A stretch of DNA of 53,622 bases from Alphaproteobacteria bacterium (lineage in GTDB: Bacteria; Pseudomonadota; Alphaproteobacteria; UBA8317): assembly GCA_038131935.1 (NCBI GenBank), contig JAYPQH010000006.1, positions 1 through 53,622 of the forward strand. Reading direction: 5' to 3'. A program made the position numbers and the translations under genes. How positions within the stretch are numbered: the stretch's first letter is position 1; each line of letters begins with the position of its first letter. Of the stretch, positions 25,817-51,652 are shown one piece after another. The notes below the pieces were generated by a model. The model made no database searches and was not told the DNA's origin. It saw only the letters and a program-made list of their open reading frames with translations.

Positions 25817-26136
25817 TGGACAAATTTCCGCTTGATATCATGCAAAAAAATGTCCTTTTGGCGAGGCCTGAGGATAACAAAAATCCTGATCGAGCCGTTA
25901 AAGAATTAGAGGCTGTGGCGGAGCAATTTGAAGCGTTGCTGGTAGAAAAAATGTTCGCTGCAGGACGTGCCAGTAAGCTTGCTGAGGATCCTATGGGAAA
26001 TAAAGCCACAGATACGTTTTACAGTTTACTTGATCGAGAATATGCGATCAGTGCGGCGGACCAAGGATCCTTTGGTATTGCAGAAGCTCTGGTTGCGCAG
26101 TTTCGGCATCATGTTCAAGCTTCAGGAGATCGTTGA
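25813..26136 (+). CDS. flgJ: Single-domain FlgJ (rod-binding domain only, no muramidase)
   Basis: [30 protein letters not shown]; 107 aa. Confidence 0.88.
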
Positions 26137-29100
26137 TGGCCGGTATCCTGGATATCGCCAAAAGTGCGGTTAATGCCCATCGAGAGGCATTGAACCAAAC
26201 AGGTCAGAATATTGCCAATGCGAGCACGGAAGGGTACCGCCGTCGCGAAGCCGTTTTGGCGGAGGTTTCAGGGTCTCAAAGTGAACTCAATGCCAAAACC
26301 CAACAGCAGGGATTGGGCGTTCGCGTGAGCGAGATCCGTCGAGGTTTTGATCAATCATTACAAAACCGCGCCATGAATGCCACAGCAGGATTTGCCTCTA
26401 CGGAAACCATGTTGGAACAATTGCGTGTTCTTGAAAATACGCTTCTGCCTGCGGATGGCGATTTGACCGTTGCCATGGGGGCATTTTTTTCTGCGATGAC
26501 AGATGTTGCTGCATCCCCAGATGATTTATCTGCCCGTAATTTGTTGCTGAGCCAAGCCACAAGCCTTACCCAAGCCTTTGCGATCAATACGGAATCCGTA
26601 GCGGTTTTGGCTGATGATACCTATGATATGACAGTGGCCGCGACTGATCGGGTAAACGCATTGACGTCAGCTGTGGCGAAGGTGAACGAACAGCTGCGCT
26701 CAGGTTCGTACAGCACACCTTCACTCGCTTTGATGGATGAGCGTGACCGCTTGCTTGGTCTGTTGGCGGAAGAGGTTGGTATTTCGGTAGATTTTGGAAG
26801 CCGTCAGGAAGCAAATGTACGGTTGGGTATTAATGGTTCTGGTCCTCTTTTGGTATCTGGCGTCGAATCTCAAAATCTATTTATGACCCGTCGCGAAGAT
26901 CAGTTGGATGTTGTTACAGGTGCTGGACGCAACGTAACCTCAAGTGCGGATAGTGGTCTTTTGCGTGGTGCCATCGATAGTTATGCTGTAACAGGCCAAG
27001 CCCTCACAAGGTTGGATCAATTGGCACGTGATTTGGTGGCGCAAACCAATAAGATTCATGCCCAAGGGGTGGATTTAAATGGCCGACCTGGCGGGGCCAT
27101 GTTCGCATCAGCAGCATTTGTTGCCAATATGCCGCCACAAGCCGATGACCGTCTGTCCGTAGATTTTACACCGGAGCCTGGTGGTGTTGATAGCATCAGT
27201 TCCTTGGTTGCACAGTTTGATACAGGGACGTCCCAATGGCTGGTGCGTGATCAATCTGGACAGCTGCTAGGTCAGGGGCATGGGGTCATCGAAACCAACG
27301 CCGGCGTGGTTCGGATTGATGGGAAGGCGCAAGAAGGTGATGTCATCGAGTTTTCTCGAATGAAGGGTGATGCGCAGCGGTTAGAATTTTTGTTGGTTGA
27401 TCCAGAATCTATCGCGGCGGCTTCTTCCGTTTTGGGCACTGCGCGTGCCTCAAACCTGGGAGGAGCCGTGATTTCGGTGGCCATGGCCGAACAAGGGTTG
27501 TCAGGTCTTCCCTTGCTGTCTGACCGTTTACCCAATTCACTTAGTGGGGTGACGGCTTCGACCTTCCGTAACCCTGGGTTTGTGGGCATCATCCCACAAG
27601 GTGCTGGCTCTGTTGAATTGGCAAGTTTTGCAACACAGCCTAATGTGCTGATGACAGCAACCAACATGAGAGATCTAGAAACCTTTTCCTTCAATTACGA
27701 AGGTTTAAACTACGAATTTGATCTCAATAAATTCCCTGACCCTGATGCTCAAGATGGGGTAGGACAGTTCGATGTGGTTCGGGATATTCCAGCCTTCAAC
27801 ACGCTGGTAGCAAACAATGGTGGCACGACGGATGGATTGAACATCTTGCAAGTTTATGAGGGTAAGGACATCCCAGACTTGCTCAATCAAGGCGTTCTTC
27901 AAGGAAGGGATCAGGCTGGCAATTGGGTTAGTCTCGCTGATTTGGGTATGCATGCCGCAGGTGATGGGGTAAGTTTGTCAATTGTGGCAGCAAAGGGAGA
28001 ATTTTCTCAGCCTAGCATGAGCGCAACCAATCCCTCGGTTAATGATGTGCAGGCCGTGGAACGTGCGGCTGTAGATGCCAGCCAGATACAAGTTTTTACC
28101 CGCGAGGGGCGGCATATTGCAGGTTCATCATTGTCACCAACAGAAATTCAACAATTTCTGACAACAGATAATGGCTTTTTCTCAGAAGCAGAGTATCGTG
28201 CTGACTATTTAAACGCAGCCCAAGGTGTTGGTTACCGCGGGTTAGATATTAACCGTTATGTTGATGCTGGTACGTTTCGGGCCAATTTTTCAATTGTTTC
28301 ATCTGCAGATGGGATTTCTTCGGGTAATGGCGTTATTACTTCTGGGGTGAACCCATCGCCCAGTACGGTGGCACAAAATTTGACCATTGATGTCCCCCAA
28401 CTTGGGTTAACCTCTGAGGTTTCTGTGCTTGGCGGCCTCTCTGCAAAGGATGCAGCTGTTGCAATCAACCAAGAAATGGCCGCCCATGGTATTCATGCGT
28501 CCGCACAGACAAAGGTGGCCATATCACTCACTGATCCAGCATCTACGGGCCCTGTTTCTTTTGAACTCTCTACCCCCGGTGGTACATCTGTTTCCATAGA
28601 AGCGGTGGTTACAGGCGCTTCAGGTTTGGATGAGTTGGCCAAGCGTATTAATGAATATTCCATTGCAACGGGTGTGAGTGCCCATCTTACCGAAGGAAGC
28701 CAAACCTTGATCCTGGAAGATGCATCAGGACGTGATGTCATGTTGTCTGGTTTGGAAGGGCTGGGTTTGCATGCAAAATCTTTGGGCGCTGATTTTGAAG
28801 TCTTGGCTGAAAAAGATCTTTCATCAAACCAAAATCATCGCTTCCATGGTGTTATATCCATAACATCAACGTCAGCAATCAATGTCTCGTCTGATCTTGG
28901 CGGTCATGTGGATGCTTCTGCAGATCCCCTTGATAGCCCCTTGGTGCAACTAGAGCGTGCATCCTCAGGGGACCGTTTGCGTGCAGAATTTATCTTTGAT
29001 CCTGAGACAGATCTTGGAACCACGGGATCAGTAGGTGTGCGTGCCCAGGCGCCCTCGGGAAGTTATAACATTGTTTTGGATAGAGATTGGTTTGCACCTG

Positions 29101-30455
29101 TGTCGCGCACAAGTGCGGGTGTTAACAATGCTGACGATATCGCTGAGCAGATGGTACAATCTTTGCGATCACAAGCCCCAGCCATACGCCTGCAAGGGCA
29201 AGCGGTAAATTCTATGCCGTCAGAAGGCACAATCATGACCTTCACCCAAGGGGGGGAAAGCTACAGTTTACGCATGGGGCCATTGGGTGAACCTGCTGAG
29301 ATTATTGGCGTTGATGCGGGAAGATTTGTTGTCGATATGCCTTCTGATCGGAATGCGCAGACATGGAGCATTTCTACGAAAGATGGCTCCCTTTCAGGTG
29401 AACCCATCATTCCCGTATCCGGTGATATTGCAGCATTTGGGTTTGATAGCGGTACATCCCAATCACTCATTGGACGGGCTTTTACTATAGATAATGGGAC
29501 AAGCGAAACATTTGACGTGGAATTGGATGGTGAGGCCATCACCATCACGGTATCACGAGATGACAGTACCAATGGTGTGGTGGTTACATCGGATAACCCA
29601 AAGGTAACAGCTGAGGTTATAAACGCAGGAACAGCACAGCAACGCATTCGCCTGCAGGCTGATAAAGATGAAGGCCCGCTGCGTATTGTAAATGATGCTG
29701 TGGGTGCTGCTGCGATGGGGATAAAAACCACACGTGAAGAGGTCTTTGTTCGTCCTGGAGGGCTGGAGTTCCAACATCTAGACGGGAACACAGTGCAATC
29801 GCGTGTGACTTCTGAGCATCATTTGGTCAGTGAACGGTTGTCATTGCATGGTTTGCCTGATGAGGAATTGATTGTGCTGGTCACTGGTACGGGCAACAAC
29901 AAAATTGGAGCCTCATTTGGGCCACCTCCAGCCTTGGCACCCGAAAACGCACCATCATCACTGGTGTTGGAGGCAGTCGCTGGTGCTGCTGGACGTTATG
30001 AGTTGATCGATGAGGCTACGGGACAAAGCTTGGCAACGCGGACATTGGCGGCTGATAGACCTGCACAGATGCATGGTCTCGAAATTTCCATAGGGGGACA
30101 AGCGCAGACAGGTGATCTGTTCGATATCTCCTTAAATCAGCGTGCCGACCTTGATGGGCGGAATTTGGAAGCGATGGCGCAATTGGCGGTCAGTGTCGAG
30201 GGGCGGCGTGGATTGCCCGATGGGTTTCGGGATATCATTTCATCGGTGGGAGGCTCCTTGGAGGCTACTACCTTCGCAAATACCTCCGCCCAAGCGCGCA
30301 AAGATGCGGCAGATCAGGCAGTTGATGCTGTGTCAGGGGTTAATCTAGACGAAGAAGCAGCGAATCTGGTCCAGCAACAACAGGCGTTTCAAGCCGCGGC
30401 GCGTGTTTTACAAATGGCCCGTGATCTGTTTGAGACGCTGTTACAAATACGTTGA
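26133..30455 (+). CDS. flgK: Very large hook-associated protein FlgK (HAP1), 1,440 aa
   Basis: TGQNIANASTEGYRR, GLGVRVSEIRR, C-terminal VSGVNLDEEAANLVQQQQAFQAAA. Confidence 0.95.
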   Translation: MMAGILDIAKSAVNAHREALNQTGQNIANASTEGYRRREAVLAEVSGSQSELNAKTQQQGLGVRVSEIRRGFDQSLQNRAMNATAGFASTETMLEQLRVLENTLLPADGDLTVAMGAFFSAMTDVAASPDDLSARNLLLSQATSLTQAFAINTESVAVLADDTYDMTVAATDRVNALTSAVAKVNEQLRSGSYSTPSLALMDERDRLLGLLAEEVGISVDFGSRQEANVRLGINGSGPLLVSGVESQNLFMTRREDQLDVVTGAGRNVTSSADSGLLRGAIDSYAVTGQALTRLDQLARDLVAQTNKIHAQGVDLNGRPGGAMFASAAFVANMPPQADDRLSVDFTPEPGGVDSISSLVAQFDTGTSQWLVRDQSGQLLGQGHGVIETNAGVVRIDGKAQEGDVIEFSRMKGDAQRLEFLLVDPESIAAASSVLGTARASNLGGAVISVAMAEQGLSGLPLLSDRLPNSLSGVTASTFRNPGFVGIIPQGAGSVELASFATQPNVLMTATNMRDLETFSFNYEGLNYEFDLNKFPDPDAQDGVGQFDVVRDIPAFNTLVANNGGTTDGLNILQVYEGKDIPDLLNQGVLQGRDQAGNWVSLADLGMHAAGDGVSLSIVAAKGEFSQPSMSATNPSVNDVQAVERAAVDASQIQVFTREGRHIAGSSLSPTEIQQFLTTDNGFFSEAEYRADYLNAAQGVGYRGLDINRYVDAGTFRANFSIVSSADGISSGNGVITSGVNPSPSTVAQNLTIDVPQLGLTSEVSVLGGLSAKDAAVAINQEMAAHGIHASAQTKVAISLTDPASTGPVSFELSTPGGTSVSIEAVVTGASGLDELAKRINEYSIATGVSAHLTEGSQTLILEDASGRDVMLSGLEGLGLHAKSLGADFEVLAEKDLSSNQNHRFHGVISITSTSAINVSSDLGGHVDASADPLDSPLVQLERASSGDRLRAEFIFDPETDLGTTGSVGVRAQAPSGSYNIVLDRDWFAPVSRTSAGVNNADDIAEQMVQSLRSQAPAIRLQGQAVNSMPSEGTIMTFTQGGESYSLRMGPLGEPAEIIGVDAGRFVVDMPSDRNAQTWSISTKDGSLSGEPIIPVSGDIAAFGFDSGTSQSLIGRAFTIDNGTSETFDVELDGEAITITVSRDDSTNGVVVTSDNPKVTAEVINAGTAQQRIRLQADKDEGPLRIVNDAVGAAAMGIKTTREEVFVRPGGLEFQHLDGNTVQSRVTSEHHLVSERLSLHGLPDEELIVLVTGTGNNKIGASFGPPPALAPENAPSSLVLEAVAGAAGRYELIDEATGQSLATRTLAADRPAQMHGLEISIGGQAQTGDLFDISLNQRADLDGRNLEAMAQLAVSVEGRRGLPDGFRDIISSVGGSLEATTFANTSAQARKDAADQAVDAVSGVNLDEEAANLVQQQQAFQAAARVLQMARDLFETLLQIR

Positions 30456-33506: not shown

Positions 33507-33935
33507 TTACTGCAGCGGAATATTCCAGGAGATATCTAGGAGGGGAATGGTTTGTGCAGACGTGATGGCAAGATCGCCCTCCACGGACACATCAAGTTCT
33601 TCAGAAAGGCCTAGAAAAATTGTGGCCGGACGTGGAGGGCTGTAACGCAGATGTTCATAAAGCATATGAAAATCGCTCTGGTTGATGGCCAAATCGCCAT
33701 GCATGACAGGCCTTGTGGCTTCAATATGTAGCTGTCCAATCGGTTCAATTCGGTTGCCTGTCGTGGCCTTGAGTTCCCTGGTTGGGGAAATTTTTAAATA
33801 GCAGGTGCCCCGTGCAATGCTGATCAAGCTTGCAGATGTAGCCAACGTAGCGACCCGTGGGGTCCCTGTGACCTGCAGCTCAGCTGTCTGTACCGACATG
33901 GAAATCACACGGGTTTTGTTCCATTCGCGCATCAA
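33507..33935 (-). CDS. Hypothetical protein coupled to fliA
   Basis: ORF overlaps the fliA stop; no family recognised. Confidence 0.6.
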   Translation of the reverse strand: MMREWNKTRVISMSVQTAELQVTGTPRVATLATSASLISIARGTCYLKISPTRELKATTGNRIEPIGQLHIEATRPVMHGDLAINQSDFHMLYEHLRYSPPRPATIFLGLSEELDVSVEGDLAITSAQTIPLLDISWNIPLQ

Positions 33936-34648
33936 CTGATGGCCTCAAAAGCCAGCCCCAAATCACCTTGCAAACGTTTGAAGGCGTTCGATTTGATTTG
34001 AGATACCCGCCCAGGTGTTACATCCAAAATGGCCGCGATATCATAGATATTTAATTCTTCGACATAGTAAAGTTGTAACACCAAAGCTTCCCGTTCTGGT
34101 AATGTCGCTAAGGCATCGCGCAACATGTCCCGGGCACGTGCGCGGTCAATGGTGGTTTCAGCACTCTCATGATCACTGGCGAATAGAAGAGAATATTCAT
34201 CATAAACTTCATCTATAGATTTATGAAAATTCGCTGCAAAAACACCTTGCCAGTTGGCAAAATCGATTTCATTTAAATTCAGTTCTCGCGCAATTTCCTC
34301 TTGGGTGGCCTCACGTTGTAACTTGTTGCGGAGGCGGTCTGCGGCCGCACGTGTTTCTTGCTGCATTTTGATGGAGCGGCGACAGAGGTTGGAATTGCTG
34401 CGTAAATAATCCAACATTGCGCCGCGGACCCTTAAAACGGCATAGCTGCCAAAGCTTACGCCTTCTTGGGGGGTGTAACGCTGCGCGGCTTCAACCAAAC
34501 CTGTGAGGCCGACTTGCATCAAATCTTCGATTTCGACAACGGCATTCACCCTCCCGTGCAAATGGTGAGCGACCCGCCGAACCATGGCTTCATGTTGTTG
34601 GATCACCAGGTTAATCGGGGGCGTTTGCTCGGGGTAGGATTTGGTCAT
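33932..34648 (-). CDS. fliA: Flagellar sigma factor sigma28
   Basis: EDLMQVGLTGLVEAA, YAVLRVRGAMLDYLR, LYYVEELN, RVSQI. Confidence 0.95.
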   Translation of the reverse strand: MTKSYPEQTPPINLVIQQHEAMVRRVAHHLHGRVNAVVEIEDLMQVGLTGLVEAAQRYTPQEGVSFGSYAVLRVRGAMLDYLRSNSNLCRRSIKMQQETRAAADRLRNKLQREATQEEIARELNLNEIDFANWQGVFAANFHKSIDEVYDEYSLLFASDHESAETTIDRARARDMLRDALATLPEREALVLQLYYVEELNIYDIAAILDVTPGRVSQIKSNAFKRLQGDLGLAFEAIS

Positions 34649-44859: not shown

Positions 44860-44941
44860 CTTCATCAGGACGCCCAAGGTCTCAGACCAAAACGGGCTGA
44901 ATTGTCCGACTAAATTCTGGGCTAGATAAAGGAGAAAACCG

Positions 44942-46132
44942 ATGGCTCTTACAGTTGCTACTAATACTGGCGCTCTTACGGCCCAAGCTGCCGCCTCAAG
45001 CGTAAACAGGGATATGGAAACATCAATGCAGCGACTTTCTACTGGAAAGCGCATAAATAGTGCTGCTGATGATGCCGGCATCGGGATTGCATCGCCTAAC
45101 ATCTGAAATTAGGGAACAAATCAATCCATTAGAAATGCGCTAGACGCACAGGCGATGCTATCAACCGCAGAAAGTGCGCATAATGAAGTGGAAAATATTC
45201 TGCAGCGCATGCGTGAAATCGCAGTTCAAGCATCCAACGACACAAATGGATCAGCTGATCGGACCTCACTCCAGGCTGAAATGACCCAATTAACAAACGA
45301 AATCAACAGAATAGCAGCATCAACAACTTGGGCTGGCGTATATTTGCTTAACGGTGATGGCGCAGATGGTTCTGTTTCTACTACTGCTGATGCAACAAAT
45401 ACGTTCACGTATCAAATATCATCAAATGAAACAGGTACAAATGATACCCTCTCCGCTGTAAATGAAAGCGATTGATGCCACGAGTTTGGGTGTAGGTGGT
45501 TCTTCGTCAGCTGCGACCGTTGCATTCGGTACACTTACTGCTGCTGATGCTTCGGCTTCGGCTTCCAGCAACAGCAACTGGGACAATTACGCTTGTTGCA
45601 GAGACTGATGCGTCCGCCGCTGCGAACACAGAAAAATTTACATTCACTGTTGATGGTGGAGTACGTTGACATACGACTCTTCACAGACGGTGTCGCAAAA
45701 GGTTATGACACAACAAGTTTAACTGCTTTGGCTCAATCATTCATTCAATCTCTTGAAGATAACCTAGATACAAACACCTTACTCCTTTTTCTGTAGCCAG
45801 CAGGAGCTGTATCAATAACAAAAAGAATTCGGTTAGCGTGTTTCTTCAAATTCAAACGCTCAAGCTTCAATGACATCTATCGATGCCGCCATAACTGAGT
45901 TGAAACACGCAGCGTGGTGCCATTGGTGCTTACATCAACAGACTAGAAAGTACGGTAGCGAACTTAACTGGAAGTTGTCGGTCAGCTTCAGGGTGGTTTA
46001 GGCCGGATACAAGACGCAGATTTTGCTTCAGAGACAACAAATTTGTCGAAAACACAAATTTTGCAGCAAGCTTCGACTGCAATGTTGGCCCAGGCTAACG
46101 CTTCAAAGCAGAGTGTTTTGTCTCTATTGTAA
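44942..46132 (+). CDS. fliC: Flagellin A (about 395 aa, currently at the expression site; several apparent sequencing frameshifts)
   Basis: [15 protein letters not shown]...[34 protein letters not shown]-terminus [32 protein letters not shown]. Confidence 0.92.
44966..44988 (+). repeat. Left inverted repeat / putative recombination site inside flagellin codons 9-16
   Basis: ACTGGCGCTCTTACGGCCCAAGC, exact reverse complement of 51126-51148. Confidence 0.9.
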
Positions 46133-46153
46133 GGCTAATTCAGAATATTTCTT

Positions 46154-46179
46154 GAGCCCACTAATTGGTGGTTCTTTTT
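46154..46179 (+). terminator. Probable terminator of flagellin A
   Basis: GAGCCCAC-TAATTG-GTGGTTC imperfect stem followed by a T run. Confidence 0.5.
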
Positions 46180-46296
46180 ATAATTAAATTAAAAAATAAT
46201 AAAAAAATAAATAAATTTAATTAAAAAATAATTAATAATTAAAAGTTTTGAGCGTTTTGTCGAAACCTTATGTGTGTGTTTTCTGTGGAACTAAGT

Positions 46297-47462
46297 ATGC
46301 TTACAAATAGAAAAATAGAACGCCAAAGATTTGCCCTTCAGGTAAAAATTTTTACGTTCGTGATCAAAAAACAAAAGGTTTAAGTTTGATTATATCAAGC
46401 AAATCAAAAAGATTTGTCCTTAGATTTCGGCGCAATGATAAGTTTTATAGCCGCACTTTAGGCTACTGGCCGTATGTCAATTTACAGACAGCTAGATCAA
46501 TGGCGGTTCATATAAAGTCTGCTAACGAATCGCTTCATTATGCAATTCCATCGCCGAAGAACTTCAAATCAATAAGCATGGATGATTTTATGTCTATCCA
46601 TCACTTGCCTTACCTAAGGGTTCAAAAGAAAAGTTGGTTTTTGGATGAAGGTTATTTCAAAAACCATATTCGACCATTGATAGGCACCTCACCGATCTCC
46701 TACATTAATAACGCTCATGTTGAAACATTAATTATTGAACTTAAAAGCAAAAATCTTGCAAATAGCACAATCAACAGAATATTGATTTCGCTTGGAAAAA
46801 TTCTGAAGCACGCGGAAAATATTGGACATTGTCCAATTGGCAACAGGAATAAATTAAAAATTAAACTTCTACCAGAGCAAAATCATATAACCAGATACTT
46901 AAGCAATGAGGAGCATCAGCGTCTTTTTCAAGCACTGGCCCAAGAAAATAAGCCTATTTTTAAATACTTTATTTCATTTTTGCTTTTAACTGGTTGCCGA
47001 AAGATGGAAGCCTTACAAGCTAAATGGATTGACTTTGATTTTAATAACAACATCTGGGTTATACCAAAGACAAAAAGTGGAAAAATTCGGAGGGTCCCCA
47101 TTTCTGATGCTGTCAAAAAGTTATTGTTGTTGAATGTTTCATCTTATCAGAAAAACAACCTTATCGAGGATAAGAGCCCTTATGTTTTTGTTAATGTCAA
47201 AACAGGAAAGCCATATGTGAACTGCGATAAGACATGGAAGAAGATACGAAAGAAGGCTGATCTTAAAAATTTTAGATTACATGATTTAAGGCATTCATTT
47301 GCCTCTATTTTGGCAAACGAAGGCGTGTCAATATATGAAATTCAGCATCTTCTCGGGCATGCATCAATTACAACCACAAATCGTTACGCACATTTAGTTC
47401 CTGAAAGACTTAGGCAGAGTGCGTCCATCGCAGCTGAGGAATATTCTCTTGCTTCTGATTAA
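46297..47462 (+). CDS. Tyrosine recombinase/integrase with an N-terminal arm-type DNA-binding domain (one frameshift near 46320)
   Basis: Catalytic set intact: TGCR, KTKSG, HDLRH, LLGH, TTNRY. N-terminus MLTNRKIE...RDQKTKGLSL...TLGYWPYVNLQTAR. Confidence 0.93.
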
Positions 47463-48236
47463 ATAGCGGCAGTAATCATATCACATTTCGCGCAAGCAAC
47501 TTTAATTTTTATTATTTCACGCCGTGGAAATTATTTATTGATTAAATTTAGTTTTGTTTAAACAACTTAACGAGATACTTATGATGCTCGTAATCCCAAG
47601 GCAGAAGTAAGATGTTTCTTGCCGTAACATTTCCTTAAATATTTTACGTAGATATACCACCAAAATTTTTGTCTTTACTTCACACACGTTACTAACCTTC
47701 TTATACCCTTAAATCTTTATAGATAGTTTCTGTTTATAGCTTGAATAAAGACCGATACAAGCCTGGTAGCTTTGAGTTAATGATATAATGTCCGTTTGCA
47801 AGTTTGTTTGTACAGAATGTTTTTGTTCACGCTGGATTTATTGAGAGTTTTGAAACATTCACCAACAAGATTAACCTTATTACCTTAAATTGAAATTTAT
47901 TATTTCTACTAGAACAACATTCTGAAATTATGTTTGTTATAATTCTTTATTTTATGTCATCTTAATAAATATTCGAACAATATCAAATATTTTTTAAATG
48001 ATTATAATGGAGGCTTTCAACAGTATCAATTGTGATGAATTCTGAGCAGAACAAGCAATACTGTCCAATTGATAATAAAAATTTCCTTTTCATTGAAAGC
48101 CGTTCCACCGATCTTTTCACGTACAGCTCCGCGTGATGACAGAATTTTGTTAGTAACTTAGTTATTTTCCATTAGGCAGCCTTATCACTACATCATTGTC
48201 GGATGATGCCATTGAATAATTCGACCATAGAATTAG

Positions 48237-48600
48237 TTGCAAAATACAATTTTGCGTCTTAAATTTGGATGTATTTTTGTGATCAGTAAGAAAGTTCAAA
48301 TTTTGAATGAATATTTTACATATTACACAAGACTAAGGAGCGAAGGTTTAGTCTTACAGGACAGACGCTTGGAAATTTTGTTTGTATTATTTCAGCATAA
48401 GAGAAAATGGATGGACCGAGTTTCGATTTCAAAGATGAGTCAAATGAGTTACCAATCAGCACTATATGAATTAGAAAAAATGGTTGCTGAACAAATTATA
48501 ATTACAAAAAAAAACGAGTGACATAGTTATTTCCAATACGGAATTTTATGCATTGTCAGAGGAAACATTTAAAAAGTTGCAAAACTTGTTTGATGAGTAA
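48237..48600 (+). CDS. Putative winged-helix DNA-binding protein (frameshift at the A9 run 48506-48514)
   Basis: LEILFVL...RVSISKMSQMSYQSALYELEKMVAEQII; with one A fewer it continues TSDIVISNTEFYALSEETFKKLQNLFDE*. Confidence 0.5.
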
Positions 48601-48672
48601 ATGAGAGAAACTAGCCAAACCTTTAGCGTATGCATTAATATTGAGCATTTTCACCTTTGTATTTGTAGTCAT

Positions 48673-48702
48673 AAAAAAAGGCCCAAATATTTGGGCCTTT
48701 TT
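48673..48702. terminator. Bidirectional intrinsic terminator (end of flagellin B and the wHTH gene)
   Basis: AAAAAAAGGCCCAAATATTTGGGCCTTTTT: perfect palindrome with A/T tails. Confidence 0.9.
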
Positions 48703-48727
48703 CATATTCGGTCTTTATAGGGTAGTT

Positions 48728-51148
48728 TTACCCCTTGAAGTAAGGATAGAATGTTCTGCTTGGCAGCATTCGCTTGAGCTAACATCGCCATGGATGCTTG
48801 TTGAAGGATTTGTGCCTTGGCTAAATTGGTAGTTTCACTTGCAAAATCAGCATCAGAAATTCTGCCCTTGGACGCTTCTGTATTGATAGCCGGTAAGTAA
48901 GACTTGCAATAGTGTGATCAAGTCGGTTCATTACCGCACCAAGCTTTGCACGCTCAGATGAAACATCATTTAATGCACTGTCAATAATCGCAAGAGCATC
49001 AGATGCAAGAGAGCTAGAGCCCAAATTCACCTCACTAACGCCACTTGCAGATGATGCGTTACCATCATCTAGAAACTTCTTTGCAGTGCCGGTTGTATTG
49101 CAGAGCCTGAGCAACCTGCATTGAGCCAGCCGCATCGGATTTAAACGAAGTAATAGAAACTTCCGTCCTGCAGATTGAACAAAGGTTAATGAGCCATCAC
49201 CATTATCTGCGACACTGATAGAACTAGTCATTCCAGCAGCTGCCAAACCATATTCAATTGCGGCTTTAATTTCTGCAACACAAGCTGTTGTGCCAACTGC
49301 TGATACGCTAGTTGGATCAACCACGGCAGTCCGCTCACCATCGGAAATCCGGAAAGCGTAGGTATCGATTGCAGTAAAGCTTATATCTATATCCGTAGCT
49401 TGTGCTGTCCCAACCGCAGTCGCTGGCAACTGCAGCTGTGCCATATGATGTGTCGTCGAGTACTTCAGACAACCCTTGAGTCCCACCACTATCTGAGTCA
49501 GTTGACGCGACAATTTTGCCACCTGCCGTAGATGTGAATCCAGTAGCACTGAAACTTCCTCCAGCTTCTTCAATGATACGAATTTGACCATTCGCGTGAG
49601 AAACGGTGTACGTATTACCGAGGGCATTACCTATCGTTGTAGCGACAAGATCCCGACAGCTGAAGTTCCATCGCAGGAGAATGATATTGCCGTCGTAACC
49701 CCACCATTCACGATGTTAAAAGCGTAGTCATCGGCAGATAATAAATCTAGATACATATTGCTTCCGCCGGACTCAGGTGTTGCAGCCGTCGCATTTGTCC
49801 CATCCGTATTGGTCAAAGTAAGCGCCAAACTGCCATTTACGGCAGCTGGTGGACTAGCTGTATCAACTTCCGTTAGCACGAGAGCTGTTTTCGTACCAAC
49901 GGCTTGCGCTGTAGCCGTCAAAGTCCCAGTTGTGGCATCTGCAGTGAAATTATAATCAGACTGAACAGCATTTAGCGTGCAGATGCTAAATCACCGACTG
50001 TACCAGAATCATCAACCGCTACTGAGACAGTGTAACCACCAGCACCGGCACCACCTTCTACATCAAGCTGAATCCGATTTTGATGTCGTGTTGTCAGGAT
50101 CAAAGCCGTTTCAGCCAAATCTCTTGCCTGTACAGATGCAGTGCCAGCTGTTGCACCAGCTGCTGCTGTGTAGGCTGCGCGATTGGTTCCATCAACCTCA
50201 AAGGTTGTCCCTGTACTAGCAGGTGCAGTACCGATAACTGCAGATGCATCAGAGCCCGCGCCACCATTAATCGTTGGAAATACAATTGACCGTGGTATTC
50301 GCAGTGGCTGAATACCCTGAGCGACCCCAAGCAGAGCCTGCCGGCGCTGTCTTCTTAATGGTTACTTTACATTGCCAGACGACAGCTGCTTGAATATCGT
50401 TGTCGACATTTTTGCGTTCTCAGTGGCCCGCAGGGGCTGTCGCAACAGAAATTGCCGCTGCAGAGTTATTTTTGCACCTTTGCATTTGCTAGGGACAACT
50501 GGGCCGCCGCACCGTGGTTATAGCTGCAACGTCAAAAGAGAAAAGTGTCGTTACCATTGGACGCAAGTTGGACCTGCGTAACACCTGCTTCAGACACCCT
50601 TGAAGCTTCCGCTTGTTACTGCTGTAAGCGTCGATACTGCACCATTTGTTCCCAGCGACGTTCGATACCCAAAACCTGAAACAAAGATCAAATTCATCGT
50701 TTGACCTGCCGCGATGCACTCGATTTGCAAATCGAAAGGACACCTGAGTTCCATTCTGGTGGAAGAGTCTTTCCGTTGAATTGAGTCGTGCTGACAATTC
50801 TGTCAATTTTTGCTTTTAATTGAGTTGTTTCTTTTGCTGATTATACGGTCATCATCACTGTTCGTGTCAGAAACCGACTGAACCGCCAATTCACGCATTC
50901 TTTGCAACATACTCTCTATTTCAACCATCGCACCTTTCAGCAGTGCTAGCAAGAGCCTGTCTTATCGCCAGCATTTCGGATTGCTTGGTTCAAACTCCTG
51001 ACCTGAGCCTCTAGACGTGATGCAATAGCAACGCCTGCGGCATCATCGGCGCGGCTGAATTGCCGCTGCCCTGTGGACAAAACGATTCATGGCCGTTTCC
51101 ATTCTTTGTTTACACTGACGCCGCGGCTTGGGCCGTAAGAGCGCCAGT
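48728..51148 (-). CDS. fliC: Flagellin B body (about 810 aa): silent cassette lacking promoter, RBS and codons 1-8; many apparent sequencing frameshifts
   Basis: Minus strand [11 protein letters not shown]..., [63 protein letters not shown], ending [16 protein letters not shown]. Confidence 0.88.
51126..51148 (-). repeat. Right inverted repeat / putative recombination site
   Basis: GCTTGGGCCGTAAGAGCGCCAGT, reverse complement of 44966-44988. Confidence 0.9.
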
Positions 51149-51652
51149 CTTAAAACCTTTTGTTTTGCGCTTGTAAAATATTGAAAGAGAATAAATTTTT
51201 AAGACTTCTTAAGGTAGAGATTTTTGACAGGTCATCCGGTGCAGTAATTGTCAAGAAATATGACAAGCAGATTGTTTTTAAATATGTTTTGATTATGTTT
51301 TTCCCCACTTACAATGAGCAAAACGCATTGATATTTTTGACAAAAAACGCATGCATTTTCTTATAAATTCTTCAAAATAATCAGCCATAAGCCCTCCGTG
51401 AGGTAATTTTGGTGTTTAGGATTGATAGGGTGTTTGGTGGAACGCGTGCTTCTGCGCAAGGAGAATGTAATGTATAGGGTCCACATTACCTGGGTTCAAA
51501 TTGATAAATGGATCTCTTTTTTAAGAGCGCTCATCAGAATTCATGCCGTTGTATGGATCTTTATTCTTTGAGCGTCACTTGCTTTATGGCTCAAGGAAAA
51601 CTTTGACTTGAGAAAACAGCTAACATCTCGTTTGTGTTGAAGGGTGTGATCG

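Follow-up and report, generated by a model that had tools for sequence, protein, structure and literature searches.

The DNA analyzed here (the window) is one whole contig of 53,622 nucleotides (nt), JAYPQH010000006.1, from an alphaproteobacterium of the UBA8317 lineage (assembly GCA_038131935.1; 2.48 Mb in 67 contigs, 89.9% complete), and the analysis concerns two flagellin coding regions and the tyrosine integrase gene encoded between them. An intact flagellar cluster at 20 to 43 kb includes hook, rod, and ring genes and the genes for FlgK, FlhA, a MinD/ParA-type ATPase, a sigma factor, LPP20, FlgT, FlgA, and FlgM. The two flagellin bodies, referred to as A and B, lie beyond this cluster on opposite strands, and the AT-rich DNA between them (46.1 to 48.7 kb) has a GC content of 33% compared to about 47% in the flanks. 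Body A is joined to a promoter, a ribosome-binding site, and a short 5′ coding piece (Table 1). The promoter was assigned by its −10 box, for which we relied on what we take to be the sigma-28 consensus. Body B is headed by a sequence in the same codon phase as the start of body A, its upstream frame is closed by a TAA at 51211, and no ATG, GTG, or TTG occurs in between. Because it has neither a start codon nor a ribosome-binding site, body B is regarded as silent and promoterless.

Table 1 Features of the window that bear on the flagellin locus
Feature	Position	Strand	Remarks
fliA-like sigma factor	33932-34648		
Fixed expression site, upstream part	44906-44941	+	−10 box and ribosome-binding site
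−10 box, sigma-28-like	44906-44913	+	CCGACTAA
Ribosome-binding site	44930-44934	+	AGGAG
Fixed 5′ coding piece	44942-44965	+	ATG and codons 2 to 8 (M-A-L-T-V-A-T-N); Flagellin_N match from residue 5
Left (expression) core site (putative)	44957-44983	+	left arm GCTACTAATA; overlap CTGGCGC, 44967-44973; right arm TCTTACGGCC
Flagellin body A	44989-46132	+	currently promoter-joined; frame broken several times
Terminator-like hairpin and T run	46158-46180	+	3′ of body A
Tyrosine integrase, P4 type	46270-47462	+	open frame 46386-47462, 358 amino acids
Open reading frame of 94 amino acids	48237-48521	+	within the putative invertible segment
Perfect 28-nt palindrome	48675-48702	unstranded	two overlapping 16-nt arms
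Flagellin body B	48702-51125	−	about 800 codons; frame broken many times
Right (silent) core site (putative)	51131-51157	−	left arm GGTTTTAAGA, 51157-51148; overlap CTGGCGC, 51147-51141; right arm TCTTACGGCC, 51140-51131
Palindrome TTAAGA-CT-TCTTAA	51199-51212	unstranded	outside the segment; includes the in-frame TAA that ends the frame ahead of body B

The 5′ ends of the two bodies carry an inverted repeat that is far beyond chance. Positions 44966 to 44988 on the plus strand equal positions 51126 to 51148 on the minus strand at 23 of 23 bases, and the repeat arms extend to 37 nt (44962 to 44998 and 51116 to 51152; 89% complementary, 6117 nt apart). The 17-mer CTGGCGCTCTTACGGCC was found exactly twice in the window, once on each strand, compared to an expectation of 0.01, and none of 100 shuffles reached two copies. 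The left site reads gctac-TAATA-ctggcgc-TCTTA-cggcc (44957 to 44983, plus strand) and the right site ggttt-TAAGA-ctggcgc-TCTTA-cggcc (51157 to 51131, minus strand). The partners share an identical candidate overlap, CTGGCGC, which is asymmetric in that it differs from its own reverse complement. The core lies within flagellin codons T9 to A16; on the left it is preceded by AGGAG, the ATG, and the first 8 codons, and on the right it heads a body without a start codon. A first-pass annotation of the window had pointed to these strings, to GCTCTTAC again at 44945, and to the palindrome at 51199, and all of them were confirmed at their positions.

The inverted 23-bp copies probably serve as the core sites at which the integrase gene product of the segment recombines DNA, which would exchange the flagellin bodies. 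Strand exchange between the copies would invert the 6.2-kb segment from 44966 to 51148, and the promoter, ribosome-binding site, and first 8 codons would fuse in frame to either body A or body B. The promoter and the 8-codon piece would stay together whichever body is joined, and the unattached body would stay silent, since it has no start codon. The crossover would fall within CTGGCGCTCT (44967 to 44976), the likeliest layout being a 7-bp asymmetric overlap, CTGGCGC, between imperfect inverted arms of about 10 bp. The right arm and the overlap would be coding at both sites and the left arm at the expression site only. The action of this integrase at this locus, the exact overlap, the arm contacts, and a switch still working in the organism are what we infer from the sequence.

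The open reading frame of the integrase matches the tyrosine recombinase catalytic domain PF00589 over residues 171 to 338 (E = 1.4e-34). In P0001 numbering, R244, K267/K269, H338, R341, H364, and Y373 are invariant in 8 of 8 sequences of the alignment (A1), the window copy included, and we take these columns to be the catalytic R, K, H, R, H, and tyrosine nucleophile. Compared to P0001 (398 amino acids, 92% identical), about 40 N-terminal residues of the window copy are cut off by a 1-base frameshift near 46336. The arm-binding domain PF13356 was found in P0001 and in two integrases, int1 and int2, of the complete genome G634 described below (E = 7e-14 and 2e-17); in the window copy, with its N terminus cut by the frameshift, the match is below the cutoff (E = 0.0024). 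The best relatives after P0001 among 5.8 billion proteins were P0002 to P0007 (41 to 49% identity, E = 1e-98 to 1e-77; the next at 1e-66), which are the integrases of metagenomic loci L023, L026, L033, and L030. No NCBIfam model matched P0001 at its cutoff, and the matches listed were Xer, integron-integrase, and invertase models, none of them named Rci or shufflon. A scan of genome contigs with the integrase gave only two loci, weak and unrelated; a plasmid search with P0003 gave nothing above 35% identity; and viral contigs scanned with the core pattern gave 0 matches. The arrangement is not that of a Hin/Gin serine-invertase switch: the recombinase of the segment is a PF00589 protein and the promoter and ATG lie outside the segment, in a scan that did not take in every small open reading frame.

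The relatives of the integrase keep company with truncated flagellins. A metagenome scan with an alignment of close integrases yielded 51 loci, and for a clade count those with an integrase at least 50% identical to P0003, a full integrase N terminus, and at least 830 nt upstream were retained (13 loci). In 12 of the 13, an opposite-strand flagellin is present whose homology runs from ACTAATAC-AGGCGCTTTGATGGCCCAAGC with no start codon before it, usually behind a small helix-turn-helix (HTH) gene; L025 is the one exception. These loci are not independent: the 10 cassettes of at least 180 nt reduce to 7 unique ones, and the left flanks are of four kinds. Since the loci were fetched via the integrase, the count measures how often the integrase has a cassette and not the reverse. 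Another locus, L087 (G436:C97:1-3296), encodes an integrase 43% identical to P0003 adjoining an HTH gene and a flagellin, with no match to the core. In that flagellin, homology begins only in the I-N-x-A-A-D-D-A-A-G stretch, near residue 27 of the cassette query (about residue 36 of a full flagellin), and the locus may represent a different breakpoint or a remnant.

Junctions among these relatives locate the crossover. The flank on the side of the CLC chloride-channel gene, up to CAGGCGCTTT, is common to L029, L030, and L031 and to L022 and L023, and the flanks of L030 and L023 are 99.4% identical over 3.1 kb. After CAGGCGCTTT, L022 and L023 continue into GATGGCC and a flagellin body, and L029, L030, and L031 continue into TTGCGCC and the integrase element. 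Two different partners thus follow the same flank, and the switch between them falls in a common core of 10 bp equivalent to CTGGCGCTCT of the window. The 7-bp spacer CTGGCGC proposed by the first-pass annotation lies inside this crossover stretch but is one of four 7-nt windows that do so.

A complete genome shows a fuller version of the arrangement. The L023 flank best matched family f93, in which 2 of the 401 genomes searched had a close integrase, and this led to G634. Its one contig, of 3.74 Mb, contains perfect copies of the 20-nt core at exactly three places, which fall within a 23-kb region (L089 and L090, G634:C1:3242000-3272500); four two-mismatch matches are scattered elsewhere, and the backwards control gave 1. 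Site 2, the expressed site, follows AGGAG, an ATG, and the codons for MALTVATNT and heads a 534-amino-acid flagellin. LPP20, FlgT, and FlgA precede this site in an order that matches the window, and CCGATAA stands at a comparable distance from the flagellin ATG. Site 1, in direct orientation, heads a body of 539 amino acids without a start codon, and the interval between sites 1 and 2 contains an intact 401-amino-acid integrase, a WYL regulator, and four small open reading frames. Site 3 is inverted, heads a body of 597 amino acids without a start codon, adjoins a truncated integrase, and is followed by MotA. One promoter thus appears to serve three bodies in G634; recombination with the direct site would excise 6.5 kb, and with the inverted site it would flip 16.7 kb. 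By this comparison, the window is a reduced version, with two bodies and inverted sites only, at the corresponding place in the chromosome. The base before GGCGC (T or A) was also considered as a marker of expressed and silent copies and was dropped, as the G634 expression site has A. Taken with the link to the integrase clade and the junctions, the G634 cores uphold the part of the first-pass annotation that placed a tyrosine recombinase site in flagellin codons; its perfect inverted arms did not hold up, as set out below.

The cores are also conserved at the DNA level. Between the two window copies, 0 of the 7 codons within the 23-mer differ, and the next 3 codons all differ synonymously. 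Among the 7 unique family cassettes, third positions of codons with an invariant amino acid varied at 1 of 10 positions in the site compared to 28 of 42 further on (p = 0.003). The first-pass annotation had singled out equal conservation of the same 23 bp in flagellins with no linked recombinase as evidence that would speak against a site, and the conservation found in such flagellins was lower. The first of them is on plasmid pOA238_118 of Octadecabacter arcticus 238 (NC_020909.1, L085), a single flagellin with no integrase within 7 kb, which has 17 of the 23 bases and 4 of the 8 right-hand bases, with 76% identity over a 145-nt match. The gene order of this plasmid (flhA, LPP20, FlgT, flgA, flgM, two small genes, a SEL1 protein, and flagellin) is the same as that of the window at 37 to 46 kb, which suggests that the window cluster is of the roseobacter type. 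The second is an unlinked flagellin paralogue on contig C27 of the same genome as the window, which has 15 of the 23 bases. This control set is small, one plasmid flagellin and one paralogue, because no close flagellin was found in 120 genomes of the class searched with the 54-amino-acid N terminus. In 400 other genomes of the class, no flagellin contains the 20-mer, and a pattern scan of the class gave single one-mismatch matches in 8 of the 400 genomes, none in a flagellin, with a similar number in the backwards control.

The arms of the site were examined by comparing half-sites, with the overlap starting at C as in the first-pass annotation and arms of 10 nt; 13 placements were tried. The window half-sites (GCTACTAATA, GGTTTTAAGA, and GGCCGTAAGA) match at 7 of 10 and 5 of 10 positions. 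The family half-sites are GCGACTAATA, GGCCATCAAA, and GGCGCAAAAA, the last of which is non-flagellin DNA, and there are 4 to 6 matches of 10 among the family arms; the flagellin right arm agrees with the non-flagellin arm of the element at 6 of 10. The resulting loose consensus, G-S-N-N-N-T-A-A-N-A, points weakly beyond chance by a rough estimate despite the 13 placements, an estimate that base composition and shared descent inflate. In three flank classes (GCGACTAATA, GCTACTAATA, and GCAACTAATA; GC-N-ACTAATA), silent cassettes become homologous to the expressed 5′ end at a point precisely 10 nt ahead of the overlap, which a left arm of 10 bp would explain. Judged by these comparisons, an arm/spacer/arm layout is plausible. 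The repeat itself is more certain than anything at the site that depends on one base, for example the G that completes the TAAGA arm; such features are less secure because of the high indel density at this contig end.

A number of observations weigh against a switch and a site layout of this kind. First, the 5-bp dyad alone is near chance. The window contains 83 perfect 5-N7-5 dyads (0.0015 per position), and the number expected with the spacer inside the 23-bp identity is 0.026, or 0.07 if spacers of 6 to 8 are allowed. In the related systems, TAATA, CAAGA, or GCTGC stands opposite TTTGA and the dyad is not kept; a dyad scan of the crossover zone found no placement conserved between the window and the family. 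Second, the arm adjoining the CLC gene (GAGATCGCTG) fits the half-site consensus poorly, at 1 of 10 positions. Third, L034, L028, and G634, which are about 90% orthologous, have no core at the CLC-gene site, and so the history of the CLC junction is not a single simple event. Fourth, the synonymous-site constraint for which the first-pass annotation proposed a test next to homologous recombinases is present, but the zone of quiet third positions in the family reaches to about codon 22 (about 66 nt), longer than the core site, after which nearly every codon varies (L022 to L039). Fifth, the window departs from the family module in that it has no HTH gene and its integrase lies between two flagellin 3′ ends. 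Sixth, no contig with the alternative junction was found in the assembly, which holds one orientation only. Finally, the broken bodies and the frameshift in the integrase N terminus may mean either that the switch is dead here or that the sequence is poor.

A dyad that is near chance in the window and not conserved in the family would also be expected of an asymmetric site like the sfx sites of R64, in which the recombinase would recognize only the overlap and the right arm specifically and bind the left arm nonspecifically, the TAAGA/TCTTA dyad being coincidental. In line with this, GCCCAAGC is kept at 8 of 8 positions in every integrase-linked site and the left sequences vary (TAATA, TAAGA, CAAGA, and GCTGC). 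Rci sites are described as a 7-bp core between a left arm that varies and a right arm that is conserved, each of 12 bp (PMC11852207). However, three independent silent flanks keep exactly the 10-nt left arm though it is non-coding there, and the half-site consensus takes in a non-flagellin arm. Direct-repeat sites also appear to recombine in the family, which asymmetry is thought to prevent in Rci, and an integrase of the type that carries an N-terminal arm-binding domain does not have the Rci architecture. We consider an asymmetric site unlikely on balance.

The position of the overlap can be drawn differently as well, since the 23-mer splits exactly into 8 + 7 + 8. The overlap would then be the central TCTTACG (44974 to 44980) and the 8-bp arms ACTGGCGC and GCCCAAGC. 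The central 7 bases account for 3 of the 4 positions at which the window and the family differ, and no difference occurs in the right 8. At least C-A/T-GGCGC is kept in every silent cassette, the right-hand bases are those poorly kept in the Octadecabacter control, and under this split the CLC-gene site is symmetric at 8 of 11 positions. The central clustering of the differences is only marginal, however (about 0.07 by a hypergeometric estimate), and the overlaps of the two partners of the CLC flank, TTTGATG and TTTTTGC, would differ at 4 of 7 positions. Recombination by this class of enzymes normally requires that the two overlaps be identical. The 8-7-8 layout, which seems improbable, was set aside because the partner overlaps would differ, and the overlap CTGGCGC with 10-bp arms is preferred.

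The broken frames raise the further question of whether a switch operates at this locus at all. An alignment of 365 nt with five intact relatives shows 3 indels in body A and 6 in body B, and several of these fall in homopolymer runs of 2 to 4 bases; body A contains one TGA and one TAG. The repeat could be what remains of the 5′ ends of two flagellin paralogues or of an element that inserted long ago, in a decaying locus where any rearrangement would result from rare homologous recombination. Neither body has an intact frame, no long open reading frame occurs downstream of 51.4 kb, the integrase N terminus is frameshifted, the second orientation was not seen in the assembly, and a same-genus genome (G001, 84% complete) has no Flagellin_N match. 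Against this, the truncation of the silent copy falls precisely at the core that the family systems also have, and the 23-mer is identical between the copies while adjacent synonymous sites differ. The integrase has 1 frameshift in about 1.2 kb compared to 9 indels in 730 nt of flagellin. Blocks poor in open reading frames and without N also occur elsewhere in the genome, several of them at contig ends (33 low windows of 1136), and together with the homopolymer indels they fit a poor consensus sequence rather than decay. The blocks, with almost no open reading frame of at least 120 amino acids and with sizes from several kb to more than 20 kb, are at C5 (72 to 92 kb), C18 (214 to 237 kb), the starts of C18, C22, and C15, C37 (32 to 40 kb), and 44.9 to 53.6 kb of the window. 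The less-affected integrase argues against a poor consensus, and yet poor consensus is the more likely source of the broken frames. The probability that no working switch exists here appears low.

A broader reading, to which we would give a little less than an even chance, is that the window belongs to a wider system. A clade of P4-type integrases may be specialized on a site of about 27 bp from the conserved flagellin codons 6 to 16 and may move promoterless flagellin bodies as invertible segments, as excisable ones, or as integrating elements whose body takes the place of the expressed one. One promoter and 8 codons could then express any of several very different flagellins, and whole alleles would travel between alphaproteobacteria. 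The window would be a compact two-cassette, inversion-only version carried on foreign AT-rich DNA.

Parts of this logic are familiar from other recombination systems. The R64 shufflon resembles the window in its tyrosine recombinase, in short sites within coding sequence, and in a constant gene end combined with alternative variable parts; its sfx sites are asymmetric, as only one of the two arms around the 7-bp core is conserved (PMC11852207). In the window, however, the constant part is the 5′ end (8 codons and the promoter), so that nearly the whole protein would be swapped; the recombinase is a P4-type integrase, a type that carries an arm-binding domain; and the cargo is a flagellin rather than a pilus adhesin. 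With two sites there would be a single invertible segment, unlike the several of the shufflon. The Mycoplasma systems vpma/Xer1 and vsa/HvsR likewise have one promoter, promoterless genes, and a neighboring tyrosine recombinase, and inversion brings a new gene to the promoter (PMC2268961). The vpma sites lie in the 5′ untranslated region (−1 to −72), whereas the window site lies in codons, and the gene family and lineage differ. Two flagellins are alternated by DNA inversion in Salmonella as well, where Hin, a serine recombinase, flips a promoter (PMC3798978); in the window, a tyrosine recombinase would exchange gene bodies at an intragenic site. In Escherichia coli H17, the flnA-associated tyrosine integrase Int1157 changes the flagellin that is made (PMC3378880). 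The event described there is a one-way 35-kb excision from diverse non-homologous sites, with no defined core in the flagellin gene and no inversion. tRNA-targeting islands share with the window a P4-type integrase and a replacement logic, in that they bring a replacement for the displaced part of the target gene (Islander, PMC4383910), and the direct-core segment of G634 resembles such an element. In our case, what is targeted is the beginning of a protein-coding sequence, integration would bring in another allele and so alter the product, and the inverted sites of the window would give a switch and not an insertion.

By these comparisons, what appears new is the flagellin cargo, the site at codons 6 to 16, and an integrase of the type that carries an arm-binding domain, the logic being known from the R64 shufflon and Mycoplasma. 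Full-text searches of the literature found no described flagellin switch of this kind. In a systematic survey of gene-altering inversions, flagellin has a ratio of 0.272, which we read as depletion (PMC9881135).

A switch of this type would matter in several ways. Phages, grazers, and host immunity all have flagellin among their main targets. To our knowledge, the routes of flagellin switching are promoter inversion, excision of a second locus, and homologous recombination. A recombinase site in conserved 5′ codons, if true, would be a further route in which nearly the whole protein is exchanged behind a fixed start, and flagellin alleles would become mobile. It would also mean that coding sequence and a recombinase site can occupy the same bases. 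The comparative set provides a concrete site, with a 27-bp core and a 10-bp crossover zone, and both excision and inversion could be sought directly in G634, whose genome is complete.

The two elements that the first-pass annotation had suggested as accessory binding sites found no support in that role. The copy of GCTCTTAC at 44945 encodes a second Ala-Leu-Thr and is unrepeated in L047 and G634. The palindrome at 51199 has the 8-mer TTAAGACT in common with the right site, is one of 21 such 6-N2-6 palindromes in the window, and has no sequence counterpart in the relatives. A different palindrome, AAGAAAC-GG-GTTTCTT or AAGAAAT-GG-ATTTCTT, lies about 15 nt outside the left arm of integrase-adjacent silent cassettes of the family (L029/L030/L036, L034/L038, and G634). 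Its symmetry is kept through one matched double change, and it may be an operator for the neighboring HTH protein.

Some features around the locus were also recorded. The 28-nt palindrome, at the 3′ end of body B, is taken to terminate transcription in both directions. The 94-amino-acid open reading frame belongs to no Pfam family and has only a subthreshold match to RinB (E = 0.0023). Promoters of the sigma-70 type were found at shuffle level (20 compared to 16.7 expected from shuffles), and a tRNA scan of 40 to 53.6 kb and an Rfam scan of 43 to 53.6 kb gave no matches. A third flagellin-like gene elsewhere in the genome (L017, G000:C27:18911-20697) is intact, divergent, about 595 amino acids long, and without a core site, and it is preceded by a long open reading frame with internally repeated motifs. 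The FlgK-like hook-associated protein of the flagellar cluster (26133 to 30455) is unusually long at 1440 amino acids.

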